Below, piece after piece: positions 32,838 through 48,551 of a stretch of DNA of 64,000 bases (its first letter is position 1; each line of letters begins with the position of its first letter). Both the position numbers and the translations under genes were made by a program. This DNA comes from Candidatus Latescibacterota bacterium. GTDB taxonomy: Bacteria > Latescibacterota > UBA2968. The notes under the pieces were generated by a model, which was given only the letters and a program-made list of their open reading frames with translations, ran no database searches and was not told the origin of the DNA. The stretch is from contig OZ242311.1 of assembly GCA_965207885.1 (NCBI GenBank), forward strand, positions 1,952,001 through 2,016,000. Reading direction: 5' to 3'.

Positions 32838-34033
<1,196 letters not shown>

Positions 34034-34197: not shown

Positions 34198-36333
34198 ATG
34201 CAAGATAGCCAGGTTAGTCGCATTCCCAACTTTATCTGGGGCATTGCCGACGATGTGTTGCGCGACCTGTACGTGCGGGGCAAGTACCGCGATATTATTC
34301 TGCCGATGACGGTGATTCGACGGCTGGACGCGGCGCTCGAGCCGACCAAGCAGGCTGTTCTCGCTATGCGAACCAGACTGGACGAGGATGGCGTTATTGA
34401 GCAGGAAGCCGCTCTGAAACAGGCTGCCGGGCACGCTTTTTACAACGCATCGCCATTCACGTTGCGCGATCTTCGCTCCCGCGCCAACCGGCAGCAACTT
34501 CGCGCTGACTTTGAGGCGTACCTGGAAGGATTTTCGTCCAATGTGCAGGATATTTTGAAGAATTTTGAGTTTCGCAATCAGATTCCGCGTTTGTCCGATG
34601 CCGATGCTCTCAGCGCGCTGATTGAGAAATTTCTGTCGCCGGATATCAATCTGAGTCCCTATCCGGTGGAGAATGGCGATGGCTCTGTGCGGTTTTCCGG
34701 TCTGGACAACCACGCGATGGGGACAATTTTCGAGGAATTGGTGCGGCGGTTTAACGAGGAGAATAACGAGGAGGCGGGCGAACACTGGACGCCGCGCGAT
34801 GCTGTCAAGCTGATGGCGAATCTCATTTTTCTCCCGGTGGCCGACGAGATTGAGTCGAGTACCTATTTGCTCTACGATGGTGCTTGCGGTACGGGTGGTA
34901 TGCTGACTGTCGCAGAGGAGACGCTTCGAGATCTCGCCCAGGAGCGCGATAAGCAGGTTTCCACGCATCTTTACGGACAGGAGATCAATGCCGAGACCTA
35001 TGCCATTTGCAAGGCGGATCTGTTGCTGAAGGGCGAAGGTAGTGCGGCGGATAATATTATTGGTGGACCGGAGTATTCGACGCTTTCCAATGATGCTTTC
35101 CCCTCCCACAAGTTTGATTTTATGCTCAGCAATCCGCCTTATGGCAAGAGTTGGAAGAATGATCTGGCTCGCCTGGGGGGCAAGAGTGGCTTATCTGATC
35201 CGCGATTTCTGATCGCTCATGACGGCGATGCGGAGTATTCTCTACTCACCCGCTCCAGCGATGGGCAGATGCTGTTTCTCGCCAATCTGCTTTCCAAAAT
35301 GAAGCGCGATACCACGCTGGGTAGCCGCATTGCCGAGGTTCACAATGGGAGTTCCCTGTTCACAGGTGACGCCGGGCAAGGTGAGAGCAATATTCGCCGC
35401 TGGATTATCGAGAATGACTATCTGGAGGCGATTGTCGCGCTGCCGCTCAATATGTTCTACAATACGGGTATTGCCACGTACATCTGGGTGCTTACCAATC
35501 GCAAGCCAGCGCGTCGGCGTGGCAAGGTGCAACTCATTGATGCTACTGAGTGGTATAGCCCTCTGCGTAAGAATTTGGGCGCCAAGAACTGCGAGTTGTC
35601 CAATGGCGACATTCGCCGCATTTGTGACGCTTTTCTGGCGTTTGAGGAGACCGAGCAGTCGAAGATTTTTCCCAATAAAGCATTCGGCTACTATAAGGTA
35701 ACGGTTGAACGACCACTGCGCCTCGCTGTGGATTTGTCGCGTGAACACCGCGGTCGGTTTCGGGATGCGTGCTGCGAAGCAGATGAAGAACCGCTCGCCG
35801 ATGTGGTTGATCGGGTGGCAGAGAATATTGGTAATGGTCCCCATCTCAATTTCAATTGTTTTACGGATGCGGTTGACGCAGAGGCGTCTGAGCAGGGTGT
35901 CAAGCTGATCGCTAAACGGAAAAAGCTGTTGCAAACGTCGCTGGCATTCCGAGATGAAACCGCCGAGCCAGTGATTAAGAGGGTTCACAAATTGGGCAAT
36001 AGAGAGCCAGATCCGATTCGCGGTCTGGTAGAGGCGACTGTGAATGACCAGTGCGTTGTCGTTGAATATGAACCCGATAGCGAGTTGCGCGATACCGAAC
36101 AGGTGCCCCTGCTCGATGAGGGTGGTATTGAGGGCTTCTTGCACCGCGAGGTGCTGCCTTATGCTCCGGATGCATGGTACGTTCCGACGAGTGTTAAAAT
36201 TGGCTATGAGATCAGCTTTACCCGTCACTTCTACAAGCCACAGCCCATGCGTTCACGAGAAGAAATCCGTGCTGATATTTTGAATTTGGGGCGGGAGAGT
36301 GAAGGGGTGTTGGCAGAGATTATGGGGGAGTAA
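34198..36333 (+). CDS. hsdM: Type I R-M N6-adenine methyltransferase
   Basis: FIWGIADDVLRD, AGEHWTPRD, YDGACGTGGML, NPPY, FYNTGIATY, KIGYEISF. Confidence 0.96.
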   Translation: MQDSQVSRIPNFIWGIADDVLRDLYVRGKYRDIILPMTVIRRLDAALEPTKQAVLAMRTRLDEDGVIEQEAALKQAAGHAFYNASPFTLRDLRSRANRQQLRADFEAYLEGFSSNVQDILKNFEFRNQIPRLSDADALSALIEKFLSPDINLSPYPVENGDGSVRFSGLDNHAMGTIFEELVRRFNEENNEEAGEHWTPRDAVKLMANLIFLPVADEIESSTYLLYDGACGTGGMLTVAEETLRDLAQERDKQVSTHLYGQEINAETYAICKADLLLKGEGSAADNIIGGPEYSTLSNDAFPSHKFDFMLSNPPYGKSWKNDLARLGGKSGLSDPRFLIAHDGDAEYSLLTRSSDGQMLFLANLLSKMKRDTTLGSRIAEVHNGSSLFTGDAGQGESNIRRWIIENDYLEAIVALPLNMFYNTGIATYIWVLTNRKPARRRGKVQLIDATEWYSPLRKNLGAKNCELSNGDIRRICDAFLAFEETEQSKIFPNKAFGYYKVTVERPLRLAVDLSREHRGRFRDACCEADEEPLADVVDRVAENIGNGPHLNFNCFTDAVDAEASEQGVKLIAKRKKLLQTSLAFRDETAEPVIKRVHKLGNREPDPIRGLVEATVNDQCVVVEYEPDSELRDTEQVPLLDEGGIEGFLHREVLPYAPDAWYVPTSVKIGYEISFTRHFYKPQPMRSREEIRADILNLGRESEGVLAEIMGE

Positions 36334-36489
36334 ATACCATGTCCAATGCAAACCCCTTCTTAAAAACAGGCGGGGATGGGCTTGAATGTGTGGGTAAAGT
36401 TGACTATACTAAATGCAGACTGCTATCACTCTGAATGCAGACCGAAATAAATAAGTGCTTGACCGCTAAAAGAAGGGCGAGGAGACAAA

Positions 36490-37536
36490 ATGCCACAAAA
36501 AAATGACTTAAAGAAAATTTACGCAGTAGATCTTTTTTGCGGTATTGGTGGATTGACAAAAGGTCTCGATTTGTCTGGCATTAGCGTCAAGGCAGGTTTC
36601 GATATTGATCAGTCGTGCCAATACGCATATGAGGCAAATAATCCTCAATCAAAATTTTTCACCGCCGATATTCGTGACATTCAATTCAGCGATATTGCGC
36701 CACATTATAAGGGCGCGGATATTGCGGTGATGGCCGGTTGTGCGCCTTGCCAGCCTTTTTCAGCGCATAATCAAAATAGAAAGACGCAAAATTGCCGAAC
36801 GGATGATTGTTCTTTGGTCGGGGAATTTGCTCGTCTTATTAGAGAGGGCTTGCCCGACTTAGTCACTATGGAAAATGTTCCCGGCCTCGCCAAACATGAA
36901 GCATTCGACGAATTTCTCATAATGCTCAACGACTTGGGTTACAAGTTGGACTATGATGTTTTGTCATGCGCGGATTACGGTGTTCCACAAAACAGAAAAC
37001 GCCTTGTTCTATTAGCATCCATGTTGGATGAAATTTCTTTGCCGCTCCCAATGAAAAACAAAAAGACTGTTGCCGATTTCATTCAACATTTGCCTGCGAT
37101 TAAAGATGGAGAAGTCTCTCCCGATGACCCTGCTCATATTTCGATGGCATTGTCTCCTAAAAATAAATTACGAATTCGCCAATCAAAACCGGGGGGGACA
37201 TGGAAGGATTGGGATGAGGATATTATCAACGATTGTCATCGCAAGGCATACTATTCATCGTCCTACGGTAGAATGAGTTGGGATGCGCCCGGGCCAACTA
37301 TCACTACGCAATTCTGTTATTACAGCACTGGACGATTTGGACATCCTGAGCAGGATCGAGCAGTATCAGTTCGTGAAGCTGCATTGTTACAAACTTTTCC
37401 ACTCGATTACAAATTCGCAGAGCCGGGGCAACCTGTTGTCATAACGAAAACGGCTCGGTACATTGGCAATGCTGTGCCGGTCAAACTGGCTGAAGCCATT
37501 GGGAAATCACTTATAGAGGCGGCAAATGTCCAATAG
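36490..37536 (+). CDS. C5-cytosine DNA methyltransferase (M.HgiDII-like)
   Basis: DLFCGIGG, GCAPCQPFS, ENV, PQNRKR, YGRMSWD, GRFGHPEQDRA, IGNAVP. Confidence 0.93.
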   Translation: MPQKNDLKKIYAVDLFCGIGGLTKGLDLSGISVKAGFDIDQSCQYAYEANNPQSKFFTADIRDIQFSDIAPHYKGADIAVMAGCAPCQPFSAHNQNRKTQNCRTDDCSLVGEFARLIREGLPDLVTMENVPGLAKHEAFDEFLIMLNDLGYKLDYDVLSCADYGVPQNRKRLVLLASMLDEISLPLPMKNKKTVADFIQHLPAIKDGEVSPDDPAHISMALSPKNKLRIRQSKPGGTWKDWDEDIINDCHRKAYYSSSYGRMSWDAPGPTITTQFCYYSTGRFGHPEQDRAVSVREAALLQTFPLDYKFAEPGQPVVITKTARYIGNAVPVKLAEAIGKSLIEAANVQ

Positions 37537-39553
37537 CAGATACAAAATGAGCATCAGTTTGAATGTACTCAACCACTTGGGATTGAACCTGTATAGCAAT
37601 ACGCCAGCGGTGCTTGCCGAAGTAATTGCCAACGCTTGGGATGCCGATGCTACCGAGGTAAAAGTTGATTTCGATATTGGACAGAAAACAATCACCGTTA
37701 CTGATAACGGGCACGGAATGGACCTGAGTGATATCAATGATAAGTATCTGCATGTCGGGTATCAAAAGAGGGGGGTTGAATCTGATTATCACACGCTTGG
37801 TGGTAGAAAGCCGATGGGTAGAAAAGGTATTGGGAAGCTGTCTTTGTTCTCCATTGCAAAAAAAATCTTTGTCTATAGCCTCAAAGAAGGTGGTGAGAAC
37901 GAATCCTTTTTAATGGATTCAGACGAGATTAAAAAGGCTATACAAAATGAAGACCCGTCATCGCCGGGAGAATACGAGCCTGAACCAGTGCCGTTTGACG
38001 CTGACATTGAGGAACAGGGGACGGTCATAAAAATTACGGAACTGAAGAAGCTGCGATTGACACAAGCGTCAATCAATGGGCTTAGAAAGAGAATTGCTCG
38101 CAGATTTGGGATCATTGATGATCAGTTAGGCTTTCGTATCGTCGTGAATGGGAAAGAAGTAAGTTTTTCTGACCGAGATTATTTTCATAAAGCTCGTTTT
38201 ATTTTTCAATATGGTGATTATGACTACGCTCAATATTGCCAAAATTTAGACACGGATAGCGACACAGGCGAGAAGATGAGCTTTGAACGCCCCTTCCGTT
38301 TCGATTCGGAGGGCAATGCTACTGAAGAAGGGGAATACAAGATTAGCGGCTGGATTGCCATCGCACGTCACTCTAACGATTTGGATGACCGGGGGCAGGA
38401 CGATAATCTGAACAAAATTACGATTGTTGTACGGGGTAAAGTTGCCCTAGAGGATATTCTACAAGAATATCGCATGGGATCAATGATAAGCAAGTTTATC
38501 TACGGAGAAATCAACGCTGATTTTCTTGATGAAGATGGTAAGGATGACATCGCCACTTCCAGCCGCCAGAGACTTGTTGAGGATGACCCACGGTATATCG
38601 CACTTAGGAAGTTTATTGATAGGGAACTTCGGACTATAAGGACAGAAACCGATAAGCTAAAAAGAAATAAAGGTATAGAAGAGGCGGTTAAGCACAATCC
38701 CCATATCAAAGAGTGGTATGATGAATTGCAGCCGCGTGACTTGCAAGAATCAGCAAAGAAAATTTTTGCAGTTATTGACCAAGCCGGCGTTGATGAGACG
38801 TATAAAAATGATTTATATGCCAATGGCATCTTGGCTTTTGAAAGGCTAAAAATGAACCACGCGCTGGAGAAATTAGAAACCATCGATGCGTCCAATTTAG
38901 ACGAGTTTCTTAGTTATTTGTCTGATGTCGATGCTATAGAGGCGGCACACTACCACGAGATAGTTCAAGAACGACTCAGTATAATCCGCAAATTACGAGA
39001 GCAGGTTGACAAAAATGTTATTGAATCGTTATTACGGGATTACATATTTGATCACTTATGGCTTCTTGATCCTGCATGGGAACGTGCAACCGTGTATAAA
39101 AACATGGAACAAACTCTTCAAAGAATCGTGGATGGAGTCACCCAAAAAAACAGGTTCGTAAGAACAGATATCAGATATCGTAGGGTTTCCGGCGCACATG
39201 TGATTATCGAACTAAAAAGACCTAAAAGGCTTTTGGAAAAGACAGAAATTGAGTCTCAGGTCCGTAAGTATATTGATGCCGTTAGCAACGAATTGAAAAA
39301 GGATCCTAATGAGAGCCATTTCCTTATTGAATCATTTTGCATTGTAGATAGACTGCCTCAGGGATGGGAGGATCGTGAAACCCGAAGAACCGACGAAGAT
39401 TCATTGAAACTTTATCGTATTAGAGTTCTCACTTATACCGAACTAATTAACAATGCTAACTCAGCATACTCGAAGTTTATTCAGGCATCCGAGTCAGTAA
39501 CAGAGTTGCGTACTCTGCTTGATAACATCCGGACATATAAAAAAGTGCCGTAG
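37526..39553 (+). CDS. MORC/GHKL ATPase fused to a PD-(D/E)xK nuclease (BbrUII/HgiDII-like restriction enzyme)
   Basis: LGLNLYS, EVIANAWDADA, DNGHGM, MGRKGIGKL, DIATSSRQ, HLWLLDPAWE, TDI...IIELKRP; overlaps the methylase gene. Confidence 0.85.
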   Translation: MSNSRYKMSISLNVLNHLGLNLYSNTPAVLAEVIANAWDADATEVKVDFDIGQKTITVTDNGHGMDLSDINDKYLHVGYQKRGVESDYHTLGGRKPMGRKGIGKLSLFSIAKKIFVYSLKEGGENESFLMDSDEIKKAIQNEDPSSPGEYEPEPVPFDADIEEQGTVIKITELKKLRLTQASINGLRKRIARRFGIIDDQLGFRIVVNGKEVSFSDRDYFHKARFIFQYGDYDYAQYCQNLDTDSDTGEKMSFERPFRFDSEGNATEEGEYKISGWIAIARHSNDLDDRGQDDNLNKITIVVRGKVALEDILQEYRMGSMISKFIYGEINADFLDEDGKDDIATSSRQRLVEDDPRYIALRKFIDRELRTIRTETDKLKRNKGIEEAVKHNPHIKEWYDELQPRDLQESAKKIFAVIDQAGVDETYKNDLYANGILAFERLKMNHALEKLETIDASNLDEFLSYLSDVDAIEAAHYHEIVQERLSIIRKLREQVDKNVIESLLRDYIFDHLWLLDPAWERATVYKNMEQTLQRIVDGVTQKNRFVRTDIRYRRVSGAHVIIELKRPKRLLEKTEIESQVRKYIDAVSNELKKDPNESHFLIESFCIVDRLPQGWEDRETRRTDEDSLKLYRIRVLTYTELINNANSAYSKFIQASESVTELRTLLDNIRTYKKVP

Positions 39554-39554
39554 A

Positions 39555-40859
39555 ATGACCGCCCACTTGAAACCCTATCCTTCCTACAAGCCCTCCGGTG
39601 TTGAGTGGCTCGGCGATGTGCCAGCGCATTGGGGAGTAGTAAGAATCTCTGCGACAGCAGGTGGCGGCGTGGACTCTTTCACCGACGGTGACTGGATTGA
39701 ACTACCCTATATCACGGACAATGGAGTCAGGCTCATTCAGACGGGGAACATAGGTATTGGGATGTATCGCGAACAGGGATTTCGCTACATCAGTCAACTA
39801 TCGTTTGACACGCTTCGCTGCACCGAAGTCAACCCTGGTGACGTTTTGATTTGCCGCTTGGCCGACCCTGTCGGTCGAGCTTGTCTGGCACCAGATCTCG
39901 GCGTGCGGATGATCACATCCGTTGATGTGTGCATCCTTAAGCCCTCTGAACAGTTCTCGGCCAAATATCTGGTTTTCCTCTTGAGTTGCAATCATTACCT
40001 CAACTATGTGGCGTCTCTCGTACGGGGCGGTACGCGTGATCGCATCAGTCGGTCAATGTTGGGAGTCATCAAAATTCCTTTTCCACCCCTCTCCGACCAA
40101 ACTGCCATCGTCCGCTATCTCAACCAGGCAGACGAGCGCATCCGCCGCTACGTCAGCAGCAGGGAGCAACTCATCGAACTGCTGGTGGAATATCGGTCGG
40201 CTGTCATCCACCACGCTGTCACGCGCGGCCTTAACCCCGATGTGCGCTTCAAGTCCTCTGGCGTGGAGTGGCTTGGCGATGTGCCGGTGCATTGGGAGGT
40301 GAGGCGGTTACGGTCTCTTGCTAAAATCACAACTGGTGGACAGGATACAATCAATCAACGAGACGATGGCAAGTATCCTTTTTTTGTTCGGTCTCAGACT
40401 GTTGAGAGAATAGATACGTGGTCTTTTGATGGTGAAGCAGTTTTGACAGCCGGGGATGGAGTAGGTGTTGGGAAGGTCTTCCATTATGTCAATGGAAAGT
40501 TCGACTATCATCAACGTGTTTACAAGTTCAGTGATTTTAGTGCCGTTTCGGGAAAGTTTTTTTTCCACTACTTTAGGGCACTACTTCGCTTTGAAGTGTT
40601 GCAGGGAACTGCGAAATCCACGGTAGATTCCTTGAGACTTCCAATGTTGCAGAACTTTCCTGTGGCTCTCCCATCCCTTCCCGAACAAACCGCTATCGTC
40701 GCGTATCTCGATAAGGCCACCGCCGATGTTGATGTCGCCATTGACCGTGCGCGACGAGAAATTGAGTTGCTGGGCGAATACCGCACCCGGTTGATTGCCG
40801 ATGTGGTTACAGGCAAAGTAGATGTGCGCGAGGCAGCGGCTGAGTTGTCTGCTGTTTAA
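39555..40859 (+). CDS. hsdS: Type I R-M specificity subunit
   Basis: Two conserved KxSGVEWLGDVP.HW blocks, PPL.(D/E)Q.AIV.YL, EYRTRLIADVVTGK; two TRDs. Confidence 0.95.
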   Translation: MTAHLKPYPSYKPSGVEWLGDVPAHWGVVRISATAGGGVDSFTDGDWIELPYITDNGVRLIQTGNIGIGMYREQGFRYISQLSFDTLRCTEVNPGDVLICRLADPVGRACLAPDLGVRMITSVDVCILKPSEQFSAKYLVFLLSCNHYLNYVASLVRGGTRDRISRSMLGVIKIPFPPLSDQTAIVRYLNQADERIRRYVSSREQLIELLVEYRSAVIHHAVTRGLNPDVRFKSSGVEWLGDVPVHWEVRRLRSLAKITTGGQDTINQRDDGKYPFFVRSQTVERIDTWSFDGEAVLTAGDGVGVGKVFHYVNGKFDYHQRVYKFSDFSAVSGKFFFHYFRALLRFEVLQGTAKSTVDSLRLPMLQNFPVALPSLPEQTAIVAYLDKATADVDVAIDRARREIELLGEYRTRLIADVVTGKVDVREAAAELSAV

Positions 40860-41494
40860 TGTACAGAAATAGAGATTATATGGACAATCGCTCAGTTCTC
40901 AAGATGACGCCCGGACGCGCCGCACTGGTCGGGCTGATGAACTGCTATCTTCGCGGCTTACTGGATCCATTTATAACGTTGCTGGAAGTGCATAAGCTCA
41001 TGTATTTTATGCAGGCCGCATTCGAGCCGTTGAAACTGAAATTCGCCAAAGGTACGTATGGACCGTATGCTGAGAACCTTCGGCATGTGTTGAACGCCAT
41101 TGAGGGATATCTGGTGTCTAGCTATGCCGATGGTGGTGCTCCCGATAAGGAATTGGAATTGGTTCCGGGTGCGCTCGACGATGCCCATGCGTTTCTCGAA
41201 AACACACCTGAAACGCAGGCGCGCTTTGAAAGGGTTTCCGCGCTCATTGAAGGGTTCGAGTCGTCGTTTGGCCTGGAATTGCTCTCTACGGTGCATTGGA
41301 TCGCCAGCGAGGAGAAGATATTGGATTTTGACGATATCGTGAATCATACTTATGCCTGGAGCGAAAGAAAGAAGCAGTTTTCACAGCGTCAGATTAAGAT
41401 TGCATTTGATGTTTTGTCGGAGAAGGGCTGGATTGAGCATACCGATGGGCGTGAGACAGCGCATCCGGGAAGGACATCTGAAAAAAATAAGTAA
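40859..41494 (+). CDS. Orphan C-terminal domain of a DarG-like antitoxin (no macrodomain)
   Basis: MTPGRAAL, LLEVHKLMYFMQ, YGPYAENLRHVL, LIEGFESSFGLELLSTVHW, W.ERK..F match my recollection of DarG C-termini; only 211 aa. Confidence 0.7.
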   Translation: MYRNRDYMDNRSVLKMTPGRAALVGLMNCYLRGLLDPFITLLEVHKLMYFMQAAFEPLKLKFAKGTYGPYAENLRHVLNAIEGYLVSSYADGGAPDKELELVPGALDDAHAFLENTPETQARFERVSALIEGFESSFGLELLSTVHWIASEEKILDFDDIVNHTYAWSERKKQFSQRQIKIAFDVLSEKGWIEHTDGRETAHPGRTSEKNK

Positions 41495-41563
41495 AGGAAA
41501 CGAGTTTGAAAAAGGATATTATAGAAAAGAAACATATATAAATATTTGTTTTGCAAAGACTTG

Positions 41564-41606
41564 TCCTTTACTAAATTTTAGAATATTTTGAGAGTTTAGT
41601 AAAGGA
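41564..41606. promoter_or_regulatory. 12-bp perfect inverted repeat in an AT-rich intergenic region
   Basis: TCCTTTACTAAA-19 nt-TTTAGTAAAGGA. Confidence 0.45.
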
Positions 41607-41667
41607 TTTAGCAAAGCCGCGTCGTTTTTCAAGCTCTTAATTGACTGTGGGCATAAATTTTTCAACT

Positions 41668-41854
41668 TTGTTTGACGGTTGTTTGATGGTTGTTTGATGG
41701 TTGTTTGATGGTTGTTTGATGGAAAACCCGAAAAATGACTCGGTGAAGCAGGTGTGATTTTGTAATGCATTGTTATTAAATCACTTACTGTTTTGTAATT
41801 TGTTTGATGGTTGTTTGATGGAAAGCCAAATGACCATTGACACCATCGAGCGCG
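41668..41854 (+). repeat. 11-bp repeat element, copy 1
   Basis: 5x TTGTTTGAYGG (41668-41722), 77-bp spacer, 2x TTGTTTGATGG (41800-41821), 33-bp tail shared with copy 2. Confidence 0.95.
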
Positions 41855-41870
41855 GTGCGGAGGTTTTGAT

Positions 41871-43349
41871 ATGAACGGTCAACGTTCCCCCGAGTACCTG
41901 GAAGGTCTTCTCCGAGAGCTATGTGCTTTGCCGTACGAGACCGAGTGGGTAGAATTTAAGGAAGACAACACTGACCCACAGGAGATCGGCGAGTATCTTT
42001 CTGCCCTTGCCAATTCGGCGGCACTTGCGGGCAAAGCCGCGGCCTATCTGGTGTGGGGTGTGCGCGATCAGGACCACGCAGTCGTGGGGAGCAACTTTGA
42101 TCCCAGGTCCGCCAAGAAGGGAAGTGAGGAACTGGAAAATTGGCTGCTACGTTTGCTCGAACCGAAGATTGATTTTCATTTTTTTTCCTTGAGTACCGAG
42201 AAGGGGGCAGTCATCCTGACGGAAATTAACCGTGCTTCGCGGCATCCGGTACGCTTTGCCGGTCAGGAATATATCCGTGTGGGCAGCTATAAGAAAAAGC
42301 TCAAGGATCATCCCGAAAGAGAACGGGCGCTGTGGCGCATTTTTGACCAGACGCCATTCGAGGAAGGCGTTGCACTTGAACGGGCGACGGGCGACGATGT
42401 TGTTCGTCTGCTGGATTGTCAGGCCTATTTCGATCTGCTGAAACTGCCACAGCCGAGGACCCAGCGCGGCCTCCTTGAGGTGCTGGCGAGCGACGAATTG
42501 ATCCGGCCTTCGGTAGCTGGTGGATGGGACATCACCAATCTCGGAGCGATACTCTTTGCCAAAGATCTCGACGATTTTCGAACCTTGCGTCGAAAGGCCA
42601 TGCGTGTTATTCATTACAAGGGTAGTGGCCGGTTGGAGACCTTGAAGGAACGCGAAGTCCCCAGGGGCTATGCTTCTGGATTTGAAGGGCTGAACGAATA
42701 CATCCACGCGTTATTACCTGAGAACGAGGTTATTGAACAGGCTCTGCGCCGAACAGTAGCGACATTTCCAATCGTAGCCGTGCGCGAACTGGTCGCCAAC
42801 GCACTCATCCATCAGGATTTTTTTGCAACGGGAACCGGGCCAATGGTAGAAATATTCGAAGGCCGAATCGAGATTACCAATCCCGGCGCACCTCTCGTCG
42901 ATATTGACCGATTGGTGGATGCAGCACCGAAATCGCGCAACGATAAACTGGCATCGCTCATGCGGCGCTTCAACTTGTGTGAGGAGCGCGGTAGCGGCAT
43001 CGACAAGGTGGTATTCCAGGTTGAGTTGTTCCAACTTCCCGCGCCGTTGTTCGAGATACCTGGAGATGCCACTCGCGCTACGCTTTTTGCGCCTAAGGCA
43101 CTAAGGGAAATGAATCGGCAGGAACGAATTCGCGCCTGTTATTTTCACGCCTGCCTGAATTATGTGCTGAGCAAACCTGTCACCAACTCCTCAATTCGCA
43201 CGCGATTTGGCATTCCAGATCACAACGCTTCGACTGCCTCACGGCTACTGAATGAAGCTGTCGAAGCAGGTGTTATCGCCGTTGAGATGGCCAATAGCGG
43301 CACCAGAAATCGCCGCTACGTGCCCTTCTGGGCGGCCCAGACGGATTGA
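41871..43349 (+). CDS. AlbA_2 (Schlafen-like) + HATPase_c_4 + wHTH protein
   Basis: ETEWVEFKE, SALANSA, LVWGV, YIRVGS; VRELVANALIHQD, IEITNPG, SRNDKLASLMRR, CEERGSGID; C-terminal HTH ending YVPFWA. Confidence 0.88.
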   Translation: MNGQRSPEYLEGLLRELCALPYETEWVEFKEDNTDPQEIGEYLSALANSAALAGKAAAYLVWGVRDQDHAVVGSNFDPRSAKKGSEELENWLLRLLEPKIDFHFFSLSTEKGAVILTEINRASRHPVRFAGQEYIRVGSYKKKLKDHPERERALWRIFDQTPFEEGVALERATGDDVVRLLDCQAYFDLLKLPQPRTQRGLLEVLASDELIRPSVAGGWDITNLGAILFAKDLDDFRTLRRKAMRVIHYKGSGRLETLKEREVPRGYASGFEGLNEYIHALLPENEVIEQALRRTVATFPIVAVRELVANALIHQDFFATGTGPMVEIFEGRIEITNPGAPLVDIDRLVDAAPKSRNDKLASLMRRFNLCEERGSGIDKVVFQVELFQLPAPLFEIPGDATRATLFAPKALREMNRQERIRACYFHACLNYVLSKPVTNSSIRTRFGIPDHNASTASRLLNEAVEAGVIAVEMANSGTRNRRYVPFWAAQTD

Positions 43350-43356
43350 CGGCCAT

Positions 43357-43510
43357 TTGTTTGATGGTTGTTTGATAGAAAACCCGAAAAATGACTCGGC
43401 AGGACAGGTCTGGCTTCATAAACCATTGTTATCCAAACACTTACTGTTTTGAAATTTGTTTGATGGTTGTTTGATGGAAAACCAAATGATCACTGGCACA
43501 ACCGAGCACG
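43357..43510 (+). repeat. 11-bp repeat element, copy 2
   Basis: 2 units (43357-43378), 77-bp spacer, 2 units (43456-43477); colinear with 41701-41854. Confidence 0.95.
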
Positions 43511-43678
43511 TTTGACACCTATTGCACAGCATCGCGATATTGGATATACTCTCACAGACTTGAAGAACCATAGTGAGGCCGCGCGAAATAATTTGAGGGT
43601 GGAGGTCTTTGAAGGGGCTATGGAAGAATTGGGTGATGTGACGATTGTAGCAGAGGTTAATGATAGAGGTTGTAACCC

Positions 43679-44851
43679 ATGAGTAGCCGACGTTTGCAAA
43701 TAACATTGCAGCCTGCTGTGTTGCGGTGGGCGCGGGAGCGGGCGCGCATTGATGCCGAGCAACTGGCGGATAAGATGCAGGTGAAGCCGGAGCGCGTGTT
43801 GGCGTGGGAGCGCGATGGCAGGATCAGCATTGCCCAAGCAGACAGACTTGCCCAGCGTACGCATACTGCTCTGGGCTTGCTATACTTGACAGAACCGCCC
43901 AAAGATCTCTTGCCAATACCCGATTTTCGTACCCGAGACGATGATCTGCAGCCGAGTGTCAATCTCCTCGATACTATTTATCTGATGCAGCGTCGTCAAT
44001 CCTGGATGCGCGACGAGTTAATCGGGGAGGGTGCTCGACCGCTGAACTTCATTGGAAGCTATGAGATAGATGGCGATCCCCTGCAAGTCGCCCGTGCAAT
44101 GCGTGATGCACTCCAACTTACTGACGATTGGGCAGCATCTGTATTTACCTGGTCTGATGCCCTTGGGCATTTACGAAATAAAGCTGAAGATGCCGGTGTG
44201 CTGGTAGTTTTCAATGGCGTTGTGGGAAATAATACAAGCCGCAAACTCGATCCAGATGAATTTCAGGGCTTTGCTCTTGTAGATGAGTATGCTCCGTTGG
44301 TCTTTGTGAACAATGCCGACTTCAAAGCAGCGCAGATGTTCACCCTGGCTCACGAACTCGCACATCTTTTTGTTGGAGAGACTGGGGTGTCCAGTTTTGA
44401 ACATCTGAAGTTCGATTCTAATACCACAGAGAGATTTTGTGACCAGATAGCGGCGGAGTTTTTGGTGCCAGCAGAGGAGTTGCGAGCCTTTTGGCCTATA
44501 GCTGAGCAGGCAAGCGATCCTTATCAGCCTGTTGCACGCCAGTTCAAGGTAAGTTCTCTCGTAGCCGCACGTCGAGCGCGCGATCTCGGCTTGATTCAAC
44601 CGATTGCCTTTTTCAAATTCTATGACGAATATATGGAGAGGGAATGGCACAGCAGCCAGCAAAGTCAAGCAAGTGGTGGCAATTTCTGGAATACTCAGAA
44701 ATGGCGCATTGGCACCCGCTTTGGCACGGCAATCTTCCGTGCAGTGAAGGAAGGCCGTCTGCTCTATCGCGAAGCGTACAATCTCACCGGTCTAAAGGGA
44801 GAAACTTTTGAAAATATGCGAGACAAGATGGGAATACTGCCCGGTAATTGA
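43679..44851 (+). CDS. XRE-HTH + ImmA/IrrE (M78) metallopeptidase
   Basis: VLRWARER, PDFRT, EFQGFAL, FTLAHELAH (HExxH), ERFCDQIAAEFLVP. Confidence 0.9.
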   Translation: MSSRRLQITLQPAVLRWARERARIDAEQLADKMQVKPERVLAWERDGRISIAQADRLAQRTHTALGLLYLTEPPKDLLPIPDFRTRDDDLQPSVNLLDTIYLMQRRQSWMRDELIGEGARPLNFIGSYEIDGDPLQVARAMRDALQLTDDWAASVFTWSDALGHLRNKAEDAGVLVVFNGVVGNNTSRKLDPDEFQGFALVDEYAPLVFVNNADFKAAQMFTLAHELAHLFVGETGVSSFEHLKFDSNTTERFCDQIAAEFLVPAEELRAFWPIAEQASDPYQPVARQFKVSSLVAARRARDLGLIQPIAFFKFYDEYMEREWHSSQQSQASGGNFWNTQKWRIGTRFGTAIFRAVKEGRLLYREAYNLTGLKGETFENMRDKMGILPGN

Positions 44852-45044
44852 CGGGTAATTGATGGGTAATTGACATATAGGGAACCGGGAAACTGTGAAT
44901 TTTACTTAACTTATTTATTTTACTTAATTTATGTAATTGACGGGTAATTGACTGTTACTTGACTGGCGATCCGAGGTGTGAGATCGTATTTCTCATAACT
45001 TATTGAATATACGACGTTTATTTTACTTGACTGTTACTTGACTG
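44844..45044 (+). repeat. 11-bp repeat elements, copies 3 and 4 (stacked)
   Basis: 3x GTAATTGAYNN (44844-44876), 56 bp, GTAATTGACGG-GTAATTGACTG-TTACTTGACTG (44933-44965), 57 bp, 2x TTACTTGACTG (45023-45044). Confidence 0.93.
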
Positions 45045-45104
45045 AAACGCATTTGGAATGATATTTTTCCATACCTGAAAAGCAACCCAAAGAGAGAGTA
45101 AGGT

Positions 45105-48100
45105 ATGAGGAGTCCGGATACTGAACCAACGCAATCTCAGAAAGAAGAGTTGGACGCGCTTGCGGCTCTGCCCGATGATCAGATAGATACTTCTGATATC
45201 CCTGAGATTATTGAGGGGTCAAATTATGTACGCGGGCTGTTTCAGAAGTCCGCCAGTGAGCGGAGTAAGGCGATAGGTGAACTCAGAGGCAGACGTTCGT
45301 CGGTTACCGATACTTCTGAACGCGGTTTGGAAGATCGTATTTGTGAGATGTTGGCTGGTAGGGCGGATGAATCGAGTTCGGGTGATGTAGGGGAACGTCC
45401 GGCTGCATATAGCGCGGGTTGGCGGTATGGGGAGCGCGAGGATTACGACCGTGAGTATTGCGTGGATCTGGCGCAGTTGACGGCTTTTCTGATGGCGACG
45501 CAACCGAGGGTTGCTGAGGCGCTGTCTCTGGAGAGCGATAATCCAACGCGACGCCGTTTTCTCGCCCGGCTGAAGAATGAAGTTAGCAGGCGCGGGATTG
45601 TGGATGTGCTTCGCAATGGCGTTAAGCACGGGCCGCACGATATTACGCTTTTTTACGGTGCGCCATCGCCGGGCAACCGACGGGCAGTGGTGCTTTACGA
45701 GCAGAATCGCTTTTCGGTTACGCGCCAGTTGTCGTATAGCAATGCCAATAAGCGGCTCGCGCTTGATCTCGCGCTGTTTATCAATGGCCTGCCGGTGGCG
45801 ACTTTTGAGTTGAAAAATAGTCTTACGAAGCAGACGGTGGCAGATGCGGTTGAGCAATACAAACGCGACCGCGATCCGAGGGAGGAACTTTTCCGCATTG
45901 GTCGTTGTTTGGCTCATTTTGCTGTGGATGAACACGAGGTGATGTTTTGTACGCATTTGAAGGGCAAATCGTCATGGTTTCTGCCTTTCAATAAGGGGTG
46001 GAATGACGGTACTGGCAATCCGACCGATCCCAATGGTCTTAAGACCGATTATCTGTGGCAGGAGGTTCTGACCCGGCAGAGTTTGACGGATATTATCGAG
46101 AATTATGCTCTGCTGGTGGAGTCTGCCGACGTGCAGACCGGGCGTAAGACGCGGAAACAGATCTGGCCGCGCTATCACCAGTTGGATGTGGTGCGGAAGT
46201 TACTGGCCGATGCTGTGGAGAAGGGGGCGGGGCAGCGTTATCTCATTCAGCATTCGGCGGGTAGTGGCAAGTCCAATTCTATCGCCTGGTTGGCACACCG
46301 TCTCATTGGGTTGGAAAAGGGCGGTGAGACAGTTTTTGATTCGATTATTGTTGTGACTGATCGGATTATTTTGGACCGACAAATCAACGATACTATTCGG
46401 CAGTTCGCGCAGGTGGGCGCGACTGTTGGGCACGCCGAAAACTCTGGCGATTTGCGTCGTTTTATCGGTGCGGGAAAGAAAATCATTATCTCTACTGTGC
46501 AGAAGTTCCCGTTTATCCTGGACGAGATTGGCGCAGATCATCGGGGGAGCCGGTTTGCTATCATTATTGACGAGGCGCATTCCAGCCAGGGTGGGCGTAC
46601 GTCTTCGGCAATGGCACAGGCTCTGGGCGACCATGAGGACGGGGATGATGAAGATACGTTTGAAGATAAAATTAACCGGATTATTGAGCAGAAGCGGCTG
46701 TTGACCAATGCGAGCTATTTTGCCTTTACTGCTACGCCGAAGAATAAGACGCTGGAGTTATTTGGTACGCCAGCGCCGCAGCCCGATGGTACGACAAAGC
46801 ATTGGTCCTTCCACGGCTATGCAATAAAACAGGCGATTGAGGAGGGTTTTATTCTGGATGTGCTGGGTAATTATACGCCGGTAACGAGTTATTATCACCT
46901 CGCCAAGACGATAGAAGATGATCCGGAGTTTGATACAATAAAGGCGAAGAAGAAGCTCATCAGCTATGTGGAAACGCACAGCCATGCGATTCGTCTCAAA
47001 GCCGAGATTATGGTTGACCATTTCCACGAGCAGGTGCTGGCACCGCGCAAAATTGGGGGACAGGCGCGGGCGATGGTTGTAACTGGTGGTATTCAGATGG
47101 CGATTGAATACTATCACGCCATCCGCGATTATCTGAAGGAGCGCAATAGCACGCACAAAGCTATTGTCGCTTTTTCTGGCGAGGTGGATTACGGCGGTGA
47201 GAGGGTGAGTGAATCGTCGTTGAACGGTTTTCCATCATCGCAGATTGCCAGTAAGATTCAGGAAGATCCCTATCGGTTGCTGGTCTGTGCGGATAAGTTC
47301 CAGACGGGTTATGATGAGCCTCTGCTACATGTGATGTACGTGGATAAGGTGCTTTCTGGTATTAAGGCCGTGCAGACGCTCTCTCGTCTCAATCGCGCCC
47401 ACCCTGATAAGCGCGATACGTTTGTGCTGGATTTCTACAATGACGCTGATATGATAAAGGATGCTTTTGCTGATTACTACCGTACGACTATTTTGGCGGA
47501 TGAAACCGATCCCAATAAGTTGCACGACCTCAAAGCCTCGCTGGATGTCCGGCAGGTTTATTCAGATGAGCAAGTCCACAATGTGGTGGTGTCGTATTTG
47601 AAGGGCGATGACCGCGGGGCTTTTGATCCAATTTTGGACGAGTGTGTGGCGATCTATCGCAGTGAATTGGATGAGGATGGGCAGGTTGAATTTAAGGGCA
47701 ATGCCAAAGCCTTTGTGCGCGCATACAACTTTTTGTCTCAGGTGCTTCCATACGCGAATGTGGAGTGGGAACAGCTTTCCATTTTTTTGAATTTTCTCGT
47801 TCCCAAGCTGCCGACGCCCGTTACTGAAGATTTGTCGCTAGGGATTGAGGGTGCTATTGATATGGATAGCTATCGCGCCGAGAAACAGGCGACGATGAAA
47901 ATTTTGCTGTCCGATGAGGATGCGGAGATCGAGCCGGTGCCCGCAGGTGGTGGCGGTCATAAGCCAGAGCCGGAAATGGACCGGCTTTCCAATATTCTCC
48001 GGTCGTTTAACGACCTTTTTGGCGATATTCCGTGGACCAATGAAGACCGTATTCGCAGGATGATTACTGAGGATGTTCCGAAGATGGTTGATGCGGATAG

Positions 48101-48284
48101 TGCCTATCGCAATGCGCGGGAACATTCAGATGAGCAGAATACGCGCATTGAACACGATAAGGCGTTGGAGAAAGCGATTATGGCGCTGCTCTCTGATGAT
48201 ACTGAACTTTACAAGCAGTATTCCCAGAATGAAGCGTTTAAACGCTGGCTTGAAAATAGCGTGTTTGAATTGACCAATCGCTAA
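45105..48284 (+). CDS. hsdR: Type I restriction subunit R with an extra N-terminal BrnA-like segment
   Basis: DLALFINGLPVATFELKN, QHSAGSGKS, IIDEAHSSQ, FTATPK, KFQTGYDEP, QTLSRLNR. Confidence 0.96.
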   Translation: MRSPDTEPTQSQKEELDALAALPDDQIDTSDIPEIIEGSNYVRGLFQKSASERSKAIGELRGRRSSVTDTSERGLEDRICEMLAGRADESSSGDVGERPAAYSAGWRYGEREDYDREYCVDLAQLTAFLMATQPRVAEALSLESDNPTRRRFLARLKNEVSRRGIVDVLRNGVKHGPHDITLFYGAPSPGNRRAVVLYEQNRFSVTRQLSYSNANKRLALDLALFINGLPVATFELKNSLTKQTVADAVEQYKRDRDPREELFRIGRCLAHFAVDEHEVMFCTHLKGKSSWFLPFNKGWNDGTGNPTDPNGLKTDYLWQEVLTRQSLTDIIENYALLVESADVQTGRKTRKQIWPRYHQLDVVRKLLADAVEKGAGQRYLIQHSAGSGKSNSIAWLAHRLIGLEKGGETVFDSIIVVTDRIILDRQINDTIRQFAQVGATVGHAENSGDLRRFIGAGKKIIISTVQKFPFILDEIGADHRGSRFAIIIDEAHSSQGGRTSSAMAQALGDHEDGDDEDTFEDKINRIIEQKRLLTNASYFAFTATPKNKTLELFGTPAPQPDGTTKHWSFHGYAIKQAIEEGFILDVLGNYTPVTSYYHLAKTIEDDPEFDTIKAKKKLISYVETHSHAIRLKAEIMVDHFHEQVLAPRKIGGQARAMVVTGGIQMAIEYYHAIRDYLKERNSTHKAIVAFSGEVDYGGERVSESSLNGFPSSQIASKIQEDPYRLLVCADKFQTGYDEPLLHVMYVDKVLSGIKAVQTLSRLNRAHPDKRDTFVLDFYNDADMIKDAFADYYRTTILADETDPNKLHDLKASLDVRQVYSDEQVHNVVVSYLKGDDRGAFDPILDECVAIYRSELDEDGQVEFKGNAKAFVRAYNFLSQVLPYANVEWEQLSIFLNFLVPKLPTPVTEDLSLGIEGAIDMDSYRAEKQATMKILLSDEDAEIEPVPAGGGGHKPEPEMDRLSNILRSFNDLFGDIPWTNEDRIRRMITEDVPKMVDADSAYRNAREHSDEQNTRIEHDKALEKAIMALLSDDTELYKQYSQNEAFKRWLENSVFELTNR

Positions 48285-48329: not shown

Positions 48330-48499
48330 AGTTCGGTGCGGATGGGAGGGAGCTCGACACGGATGAGGGGGAGTTCAGTGCGGATGGGAGGGAGTTCGGT
48401 ACAGATACAGGGGAGCTTGGCAACGGATACAGGGGAGTTCGGCTCGGATACAGGGGAGCTTGGCAACGGATACAAGGGAGTTCGGCTCGGATACAGGTA
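48330..48499 (+). repeat. Degenerate 21/22-bp tandem repeat, about 8 units
   Basis: Units such as AGTTCGGTGCGGATGGGAGGG, AGTTCGGCTCGGATACAGGGG, AGCTTGGCAACGGATACAGGGG. Confidence 0.85.
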
Positions 48500-48551
48500 A
48501 GCTTCACTCGGATGCTTAGCCCGGATACCGGTATGCTCCTGGTTGCTTAAC

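Follow-up and report, generated by a model that had tools for sequence, protein, structure and literature searches.

A phased, class-coded direct-repeat module accompanies a Schlafen–GHKL ATPase–winged-helix gene at cassette boundaries of a Type I restriction-modification island

The 64,000-nucleotide stretch of a Candidatus Latescibacterota genome analyzed here (contig OZ242311.1, forward-strand positions 1,952,001 to 2,016,000; hereafter the window) contains a Type I restriction-modification (R-M) island in which one arrangement of short direct repeats is met four times within 3.4 kb, and the question raised by the locus is what this arrangement is and which protein it serves. The four copies (E1 to E4) are modules of ~100–155 bases located at gene boundaries of the island, and they are conserved and real. 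The module is not local to this genome; in many phyla it accompanies a gene for a Schlafen-type defence protein, for which it is probably the docking and control site. Literature searches found no description of such an element.

Each element is built from a left run of one to five 11-bp units, a spacer of 56–77 bp with a central TAA-N4-TTG, and a right array of two units (three at E3); the units have the form NNNN-TTGAY-GG, in which the 4-nt prefix defines the class. All four elements lie on the plus strand. E1 (class A, TTGTTTGAYGG) begins with a left array of five 11-bp units (41668–41722; first unit TTGTTTGACGG), continues with a 77-nt spacer (41723–41799) whose central sequence, TAATGCATTGTTA at 41763–41775, resembles a site for integration host factor (IHF) and lies 40 nt past the left array and 37 nt ahead of the right one, and ends with two units (41800–41821). 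E2, likewise of class A and with 84% identity to E1 across 154 nt, has two left units (43357–43378) beginning 8 nt past the stop codon of the Schlafen (AlbA_2) gene, a spacer again of 77 nt (43379–43455; central TAAACCATTGTTA at 43419–43431) and two right units (43456–43477). E3 (44844–44954; class B, GTAATTGAYGG) has three left units of which the third is degenerate (GTAATTGACAT; 44844–44876), a 56-nt spacer (44877–44932, TAA at 44907) and a right array (44933–44954) that is abutted by the single left unit (44955–44965) of E4 (44955–45044; class C, TTACTTGACTG), where a 57-nt spacer (44966–45022, TAA at 44996) and a right array (45023–45044) follow. E1 stands before the Schlafen gene, E2 after it, and E3 and E4 are stacked before hsdR. 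The coordinates, arrays, units and spacers given for all four copies by a sequence-only reading of this DNA were confirmed on re-examination of the sequence, and its start-to-start distances (51, 51, 41 and 41 bp from the last left unit to the core; 37, 37, 26 and 27 bp from the core to the right unit) proved exact in all eight cases. By eye, CACTTA(G/C) also recurs 11–19 nt upstream of the right array.

Allowing at most one mismatch, the window contains 12 copies of the unit TTGTTTGATGG where 2.09 are expected, and none of 100 shuffles gets to 12. Exact period-11 tandem duplications number 13 in the whole 6.23-Mb genome, four of them within these 3.4 kb, and similar TTGAY unit pairs 11 bp apart are found at 14 places genome-wide, of which 11 are in this region. 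These shuffles and duplication counts, with the reversed-pattern control given below, exclude a chance or slippage artefact. An Rfam scan of 40500–45500 returned no match at the gathering score (the best, Yfr1 at 26.1 bits versus a cutoff of 38, falls on the minus strand inside the AlbA_2 gene), and a small CCGA..TCGG hairpin of class-A spacers is confined to Latescibacterota copies; the reading as an RNA element was dropped on both counts. An inverted-repeat search found no conserved palindrome that spans an element.

The gene at 41871–43349 (+), between E1 and E2, encodes a 492-aa protein with an AlbA_2/Schlafen domain (PF04326, E 2.9e-18), a GHKL ATPase domain (HATPase_c_4, PF13749, E 6.9e-21) and a C-terminal winged helix-turn-helix (wHTH), as assigned by Pfam, alignment, an AlphaFold 2 (AF2) model and Foldseek. 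Homologues were found at 58 loci in contigs restricted to one genome per species, the hosts including Latescibacterota (the nearest relatives), Binatia, Acidobacteriota, Nitrospirota, Planctomycetota, Actinomycetota, Alpha-, Beta- and Gammaproteobacteria (Pseudomonadota) and Methanotrichaceae archaea, among others. The homologous genes are flanked by period-11 arrays of NNNN-TTGAY-GG units, and tandem 11-bp units lie no more than 260 nt past the stop codon in 52 of the 67 homologous genes that reach the C-terminus (rows not de-duplicated). Within the genome studied here, both HATPase_c_4 paralogues with a C-terminal wHTH have 3' arrays, as against none of the four paralogues without one; the second of the two, located with its arrays at C1:984847–986400, differs in both wHTH and unit (TGGCTAATTC) and keeps the array-spacer-array layout. 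Class-D elements carry the gene's 3' end with them, in that every copy retains ~25 nt of it (..YVPFWA*) even behind PIN or AAA_21 genes.

The same association emerges when the search is made with DNA alone. The pattern TTGAY-N6-TTGAY-N55-85-TTGAY-N6-TTGAY was scanned over 168 genomes of the phylum and matched in 41, whereas the reversed control pattern matched in none, and all 20 other genomes of the genus were positive. Among the 16-kb regions around 20 pattern matches, with ~4 kb annotated on each side, an AlbA_2+HATPase_c_4 gene adjoins the element in 14; seven of these 14 have no Type I R-M gene within ~4 kb on either side, the settings including a position between an SDR and a GFO/IDH/MocA gene and another between DHFR and an aminotransferase. 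One of the 20 regions, L097, is a false positive in NHL-repeat coding sequence.

Homologues accompanied by the element also occur on plasmids of cultured bacteria, in Providencia rettgeri and, the elements being weaker, in Cupriavidus and Burkholderia. On the chromosome of E. coli YZ22PE67 (L293, 3344–4945) a homologue of 489 aa lies beside a retron St85 system, and its 3' element consists of two copies of TTGCTTGATGG, a 75-nt spacer and two further copies, with no annotated gene for ~800 bp thereafter; this locus could serve as a tractable model.

Alignment of 28 sequences shows that Schlafen residues E23, E28, F29 and K30 are invariant, as are E306, N310, D316, G374 and G376 of the GHKL N- and G-boxes and R443, R445, Y483, P485 and W487 of the wHTH, with S457 and R458 nearly so. 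In the AF2 model (pLDDT 86.4) the C-terminus forms a helix-helix-helix-strand-strand winged helix (H416–432, H439–446, H453–465, E469–471, E483–485), the recognition helix being predicted at about residues 453–465, and Foldseek matches of the model include 3LMM, SLFN5/11/12/13/14 and histidine-kinase ATPase domains. The signatures of this helix sort with the unit prefixes: TTG(T/C)-TTGAYGG units go with NAxxASRLLxEA, GTAC- with NRSxVSRLIREA, GTAA- with NKAAVSR(Y/R)IREA, GT(A/G)G- with NKAxASRL(L/I)REAL, YCAT- with ASRLIKEA, and GGTT-TTGATT with NAAQVSQVIRRA. When array class was mapped onto trees of 56 proteins, 18 changes were required on the tree of the N-terminal 370 aa versus eight on that of the C-terminal 80 aa, the minimum being five, and well-supported sister pairs on the N-terminal tree differ in class (L107/L111, L057/L036, L039/L041). 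The wHTH and the element have therefore been swapped together against the enzyme body, and the unit class follows the predicted recognition helix, not the body.

The sequence-only reading had named the wHTH of this AlbA_2-HATPase protein as the best candidate partner of the arrays. The 3' elements of the homologues, the regions found from DNA alone and the sorting of class with helix all favour that candidate. The description of the gene as lying between copies 1 and 2 is accurate for the window and understates the rule, the primary unit being the gene plus its 3' element; an upstream copy need not share the class of the gene (L017), but the 3' element does.

The helical phasing noted in the window likewise generalizes across the family. 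For 85 elements, grouped by spacer sequence into 51 clusters with one spacer length counted per cluster, 48 of the 51 fall into bands ~10.5 bp apart: 55–57 nt (10 clusters), 64–68 nt (20), 76–78 nt (15) and 87–89 nt (3). Only spacers of 44, 70 and 82 nt are off band, and no cluster has a spacer of 58–63 or 71–75 nt, although the spacers of distant taxa cannot be aligned. Right arrays of exactly two units are found in 81 of the 85 elements, and the left array has one, two, three, four or five units in 21, 43, 14, 3 and 4 elements, respectively. TAA occurs at spacer index 29–31 or 39–41 in 33 of 51 clusters, and YAA-N4-YT starts 26–28 or 36–38 nt before the right array in 26 of 51, compared with a background of 0.016 per position. 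A one-helical-turn rule is thus general, the centre lying at 30 or 40 bp on the left side and at 27 or 37 bp on the right. The consensus for IHF is YAANNNNTTGATW. The centres in the window depart from it by one or more mismatches, and exact matches occur in L025, L036 (TAAGTGGTTGATA), L039, L109 and L111, so that the IHF-like core claimed for the window is upheld in bacterial elements as an enrichment at fixed positions. It is absent from those positions in the three archaeal clusters (L013, L032, L057), of whose spacers two are off band (82 and 70 nt) and that of L057 is in band (68 nt). The central motif was also considered as an extra wHTH unit and rejected, because the four nucleotides before its TTG depart, by eye, from the class prefix.

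What follows the element is usually close and co-oriented. A same-strand open reading frame (ORF) of at least 100 aa begins within 200 nt after 50 of 65 terminal elements, and in many of these 50 it is hsdR, with the start MTTDTSE(K/R)GLE located 9–53 nt past the right array. Where hsdR starts so near the right array, its transcription must begin in or before the element, and the right array would therefore be at or downstream of the start site. For hsdR of the window a promoter-like site is present at 45038–45067 (+), comprising a -35 TTGACT in the last E4 unit, 18 nt and a -10 TATTTT; between the E4 array and the ATG, mean column identity among five genus members is 93%, and four of them read TATATT at -10. 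The suggestion that TTGAY could act as a -35-like box is supported to this extent, the -35 at E4 being in the right array and not in the core. A further sigma-70-like promoter at the head of the ImmA cassette (43512–43541, +; TTGACA-18-GATATT, 10/12, a consensus match only) lies in a stretch that is conserved in L011. Sigma-70 consensus scans gave no match in the spacers of E1–E3, and in the elements of E. coli and P. rettgeri a sigma-70 promoter inside the spacer was not above chance.

These results are best accommodated, at somewhat better than even probability, by regarding the module as a phased docking or operator site of the Schlafen–GHKL ATPase–wHTH protein that would control the next gene. 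The proposal starts from the observed anatomy, phasing, gene linkage, class-helix correspondence and cassette polymorphism; binding, bending, bridging and the direction of regulation we infer from sequence. The primordial unit would be the gene together with a module starting a few bases past its stop codon, typically between hsdS and hsdR of a Type I operon. Each 11-bp unit would be one wHTH site, with a specificity class set by the 4-nt prefix and matched by the recognition helix, and the left array of one to five units and the right array of two would present themselves on the same face of the DNA, with the IHF-like site as a putative bend at the phased distances between them. The bound protein, probably a dimer through its GHKL domain, would bridge or wrap both arrays; the closed complex would then cover the promoter or the 5' end of whatever gene follows, hsdR or another defence cassette, and most likely repress it, and the ATPase/Schlafen part may act as the switch. 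E1 and E2 would match the resident class-A protein, while E3 and E4 would be leftovers of the B- and C-type genes found in relatives, E4 now bearing the apparent -35 of hsdR.

Several observations weigh against this proposal. Of the 41 element-positive genomes of the phylum, 14 (one of them a false positive) have no match to the wHTH query; 13 genomes have the wHTH and no strict pattern match, and 114 have neither. In five of the element-only genomes the neighbours of the elements are longer AlbA_2-HATPase proteins that end in other types of wHTH, and two more have a 10-kb island without an AlbA_2-HATPase gene; since these longer proteins (582–625 aa) are also flanked by TTGAY arrays, the pairing of gene and element is not strictly one to one. 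Genome G087 has elements at two loci, its only HATPase_c_4 protein is unrelated, and no cognate gene was found there. The genome studied here has a single wHTH match, the class-A gene, which leaves E3 and E4 as orphans although both are intact, and the stretch from E4 to hsdR is conserved in the genus as described above though no cognate gene is present. Where hsdR starts 9–16 nt past the right array there is no space for a promoter between them, and sigma-70 scans of the Enterobacterales elements gave one match in E. coli, equal to the shuffle mean, and none in P. rettgeri. The E. coli spacer is one base outside its band and has no central motif, and the archaeal hosts are not known to have IHF. 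Finally, the coding region of the wHTH is contiguous with the element, so that block inheritance alone could yield much of the class-helix match; the correspondence could stem from such inheritance instead of recognition.

The element might instead be a storage or sensing dock and not an operator, holding a latent Schlafen nuclease-ATPase on DNA beside its own gene and hsdR until it is freed and activated by signs of infection (DNA mimics, lost host DNA or a failing R-M enzyme, for example); this is considered unlikely. The position would be like that of PrrC in the prr locus, where the gene order is likewise hsdM-hsdS-gene-hsdR. Its appeal lies in the location of the element at simple loci, 3' of the gene and not upstream, in the weakness of the promoter consensus inside the element, and in the elements that follow genes at loci without a downstream defence gene (L109, L113 and the E. 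coli locus); the invariance of the Schlafen motif residues makes a nuclease plausible, and in the single case studied a bacterial Schlafen acts as a tRNase activated by phage (PMC13056530). Orphan elements nevertheless persist without the protein, and a dock requires no fixed, short distance to the next start codon and no shared orientation with the next gene, yet most terminal elements show both. A related and comparably unlikely scheme would combine docking with control, the protein, a latent Schlafen tRNase/GHKL switch, being parked by the arrays where hsdR begins so as to guard the Type I enzyme in the manner of PrrC. As long as it stays in the phased, bent complex, it would be inactive and the next defence gene shut; phage anti-restriction (DNA mimics, breakdown of host DNA, a stalled HsdR) would undock it and so turn on both the nuclease and the downstream cassette. 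The unit and helix classes would let several guards share one island without cross-talk, and genomes could exchange the guarded cassettes by way of these same repeats.

Cassette exchange may alternatively be the first function, a possibility given a rather low probability. In one form the elements would be attC- or attP-like and would serve a recombinase whose gene lies elsewhere, the arrays corresponding to arm-type sites and the centre to an IHF site; in another they would be portable homology through which a circular cassette of gene, element and target stub integrates and excises. The elements do stand at every cassette boundary, and both E1 and E2 have behind them a decayed 5' hsdR stub of the MTTDTSE type, namely MTIDTIERGAEVLI at 41830–41874 (+), which overlaps the AlbA_2 start, and MITGTTEHV at 43486–43515 (+), recognized by alignment to the true hsdR start. 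The stubs align with that start over ~24–26 nt (E1 stub against L017, ~26 nt), and longer stubs precede the same junction in relatives, for example L010. Strain variation is evident in four RNA-library runs, which here represent contigs from related sponge-metagenome strains spanning E1 into the gene and carry no start or strand information: one allele lacks the AlbA_2 cassette (joint 41666->43356, at the starts of both left arrays), another, in a related strain, lacks E3 (joint 44852->44980), the E1 left array is 22 nt shorter in one contig, and the E2 left array is one unit longer in two. These gains and losses of units affect the outer side of the left array and leave the inner spacing unaltered.

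The post-mdh site carries different cassette sets in relatives. The uvrD-gatC intergenic spot (loci L154–L162) is an insertion hotspot of the genus: among 21 genomes, six are empty (8–60 bp), G087 has a lone element with a flanking 9-bp direct repeat, and the other 14 hold inserts of 1–5.4 kb. Among these 14, G081 has AlbA_2 and AAA_21 cassettes bounded by three class-D elements, and behind two of the three stands a copy of the uvrD 3' end (38 nt or more); most of the other inserts are without an element, and this counts against exchange as the first function. The insert at that spot in the genome studied here (C1:3129985–3133720) is 3.7 kb long and has three ORFs and no TTGAY arrays. No recombinase, integrase or transposase was found by Pfam among the 43 window ORFs of at least 110 aa, in agreement with the absence of a recombinase gene stated by the sequence-only reading, and none recurs in the 20 pattern-derived regions, where the only such genes are a serine recombinase near the L097 false positive and DDE transposases in L100/L101. 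No fixed crossover junction was found: stub lengths range from ~20 nt to >150 nt, and on its 5' side the gene is preceded in different loci by the hsdS end, a truncated hsdM or a piece of hsdR. The varying stubs and contexts and the lack of a recurring recombinase therefore fit homologous exchange through the repeated modules and not a site-specific system, so that the dedicated cassette recombination site once suggested is not sustained. A candidate tyrosine-recombinase core, GTGATTTTGTAA-N7-TTATTAAATCAC of the E1 class-A spacer, was rejected, being shared neither by E2 nor by other classes. Because the modules are direct repeats of 100–150 bp they also supply homology for the gain and loss of cassettes, and the elements are indeed also cassette boundaries; turnover by repeat homology is a secondary role, and homology alone leaves the class-specific units, the fixed two-unit right array and the quantized spacers unexplained.

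Quite improbably, the element could be a plain promoter or leader of hsdR or another next gene, read by host factors (RNA polymerase, IHF or a nucleoid protein), with the repeats as -35/UP-like or slippage-prone spacers and the Schlafen gene as a frequent neighbour without a molecular link. The -35-like TTGACN and the conserved -35/-10 pair at E4 are in keeping with this, as are the survival of elements in genomes without the gene and the strain differences in unit number; but discrete unit classes are kept across phyla, including archaea, whose transcription machineries differ greatly, the class follows the wHTH, elements carry the gene's 3' end along, and the units change at the outer side of the left array with the inner spacing intact. 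A phage origin of the element was rejected after two scans of the IMG/VR viral contigs with 18-mer unit pairs, which gave 35 and 58 loci (about chance by a rough estimate); in none of the 93 did tblastn detect an AlbA_2 homologue within 3 kb, and just two of them (L243, L284) have the two-array architecture. Among these contigs, a phage-like family (L232, L234, L236, L245, L247, L250, L265, L269, L270, L274, L280, L281) has three copies of GTACTTGATGG directly following a terminator-like hairpin, with no second array and no AlbA_2 gene within 3 kb.

Among known systems, the nearest in architecture is parC of plasmid R1, which as described in PMC2241845 also has two same-orientation arrays of 11-bp direct repeats around a short core: two sets of five iterons flank a 39-bp promoter core, and ParR represses through a U-shaped complex. 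The module differs from this 5+5 arrangement and its promoter core in having 1–5 plus two units and a quantized spacer of 55–89 bp with an IHF-like centre. ParR is moreover a small ribbon-helix-helix protein encoded next to parM, and neither family is represented among the 43 window ORFs; here the candidate binder is a wHTH carried by a Schlafen-GHKL protein of 490 aa, in chromosomal defence islands where the site follows the gene on its 3' side. In biological context the closest system is RptR, a small dimeric regulator of a Type I R-M/DarTG island of enteropathogenic E. coli, described in PMC12255303 as binding direct repeats at a promoter; that island too embeds its regulator and repeats, and the window island has a DarG remnant. 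The RptR repeats, as given there, are three 9-bp copies with a TAGCTA palindrome upstream of the whole island (PMC12255303). The present elements have instead NNNN-TTGAY-GG units in two arrays with a phased spacer, a different protein family and a site before hsdR.

The intasome of lambda attP combines arm-type direct repeats and IHF sites beside the int gene, and the module resembles it in having direct repeats of about one turn with an IHF-like site between them, 3' of the presumed binder gene and in inserted DNA. It differs in the lack of a tyrosine recombinase, of fixed junctions and of a core-type inverted repeat conserved across classes, although an imperfect one is seen by eye in some class-A spacers. 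Integron attC sites differ from these direct-repeat arrays as well, no conserved palindrome spanning the element and no integrase being present in the window. The C proteins of Type II R-M systems are small HTH dimers that act on palindromic C-boxes, the regulator gene being immediately upstream of the restriction gene; operators between a regulator and a restriction gene are a shared feature, and timing or limiting of nuclease expression would be plausible in both, but here the candidate is a large multidomain protein, the sites are direct-repeat arrays and the system is Type I.

The island in which the elements stand (34198–48284) is inserted after mdh, its gene order being taken from Pfam, NCBIfam and PADLOC; more precisely it is placed after RNase G-L21-mdh (33107–34033). 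It opens with hsdM (34198–36333), followed by a Type II pair at 36490–39553 (Dcm-type C5 methylase and a GHKL restriction enzyme of the BbrUII/HgiDII family) that is low in GC (0.39–0.46), is nested between hsdM and hsdS (39519–40859), and has borders without TTGAY arrays. A 211-aa DarG-like ORF (40859–41494) matches only the C-terminal half of DarG, covering positions 154–338 of the antitoxin model, without a macrodomain or a DarT gene, and looks like a deletion remnant; an intact DarT-DarG occupies the same position before a class-A element in genus relatives L288 and L290. Just upstream of E1 (41549–41620) is a second repeat motif: TCCTTTACTAAA (41564–41575) and TTTAGTAAAGGA (41595–41606) form a perfect 12-nt inverted pair, after which comes TTTAGCAAAG. 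Related to it in place, GGATTTAGTAAA occurs in two to four tandem copies at the equivalent position in relatives (L010 7251–7289, L017 7471–7520, L011 2366–2389), and also in the Fibrobacteraceae locus L049 (5718–5741) and the viral-collection contigs L251 and L262.

Downstream of E2, a 71-aa ORF (43467–43682) has its TTG start inside the right array and an ATGA overlap with the start of an HTH-ImmA/IrrE (M78) metallopeptidase gene, RmrA/CapP-like (43679–44851, +), whose stop codon falls within the first E3 unit; the stretch of the small ORF is kept upstream of ImmA in relatives, and a DUF4411 partner that follows ImmA in L290 is absent from this window. The 1059-aa hsdR (45105–48284, +) lies downstream of the stacked E3 and E4, and directly past its stop codon, at the right edge of the island, are tandem 21/42-bp repeats (48330–48504) with ~8 copies of GGGAGYTYGRCACGGATACAG-like units. 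In G072 and G079 (L289, L292) the post-mdh spot has no Type I genes and holds elements with two longer AlbA_2-HATPase genes (582 and 615–624 aa). A second hsdR of the genome studied here (C1:3904230–3904600; L124 1100–1480) is preceded by five copies of GTCTYATTGGG, four of GGCTTATTCT and four of GCGCAATAGGA.

The protein belongs to a class that is common in bacteria. With an N-terminal Schlafen domain bearing the E..EFK motif, a GHKL ATPase and then an HTH, it has exactly the architecture of the pSlfn-HisKinase-HTH class, which makes up 19.2% of 5,930 pSlfns and whose genes cluster with defence genes (PMC13056530, Nat Microbiol 2026); with and without the HTH, Schlafen-HisKinase is reported as the commonest bacterial Schlafen class, at 53% of the same 5,930. 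According to that paper, the Schlafen-HisKinase fusions tested (no HTH) were not among the two protecting genes, and the constructs carried 100–150 bp of upstream sequence as native promoter; its main text uses the words 'repeats', 'restriction-modification' and 'DNA-binding' zero times each, and no mention of a cis element was found in it. Constructs without the 3' flank and the downstream gene may miss function. The class-coded, phased module gives this class a concrete candidate DNA target, and suggests that its proteins, docked on DNA, regulate or guard the defence genes next to them, hsdR in particular. The module is also a sequence signature for cassette boundaries in Type I R-M islands of bacterial phyla and some archaea, and it may be an example of transcription-level control of a Type I restriction subunit.

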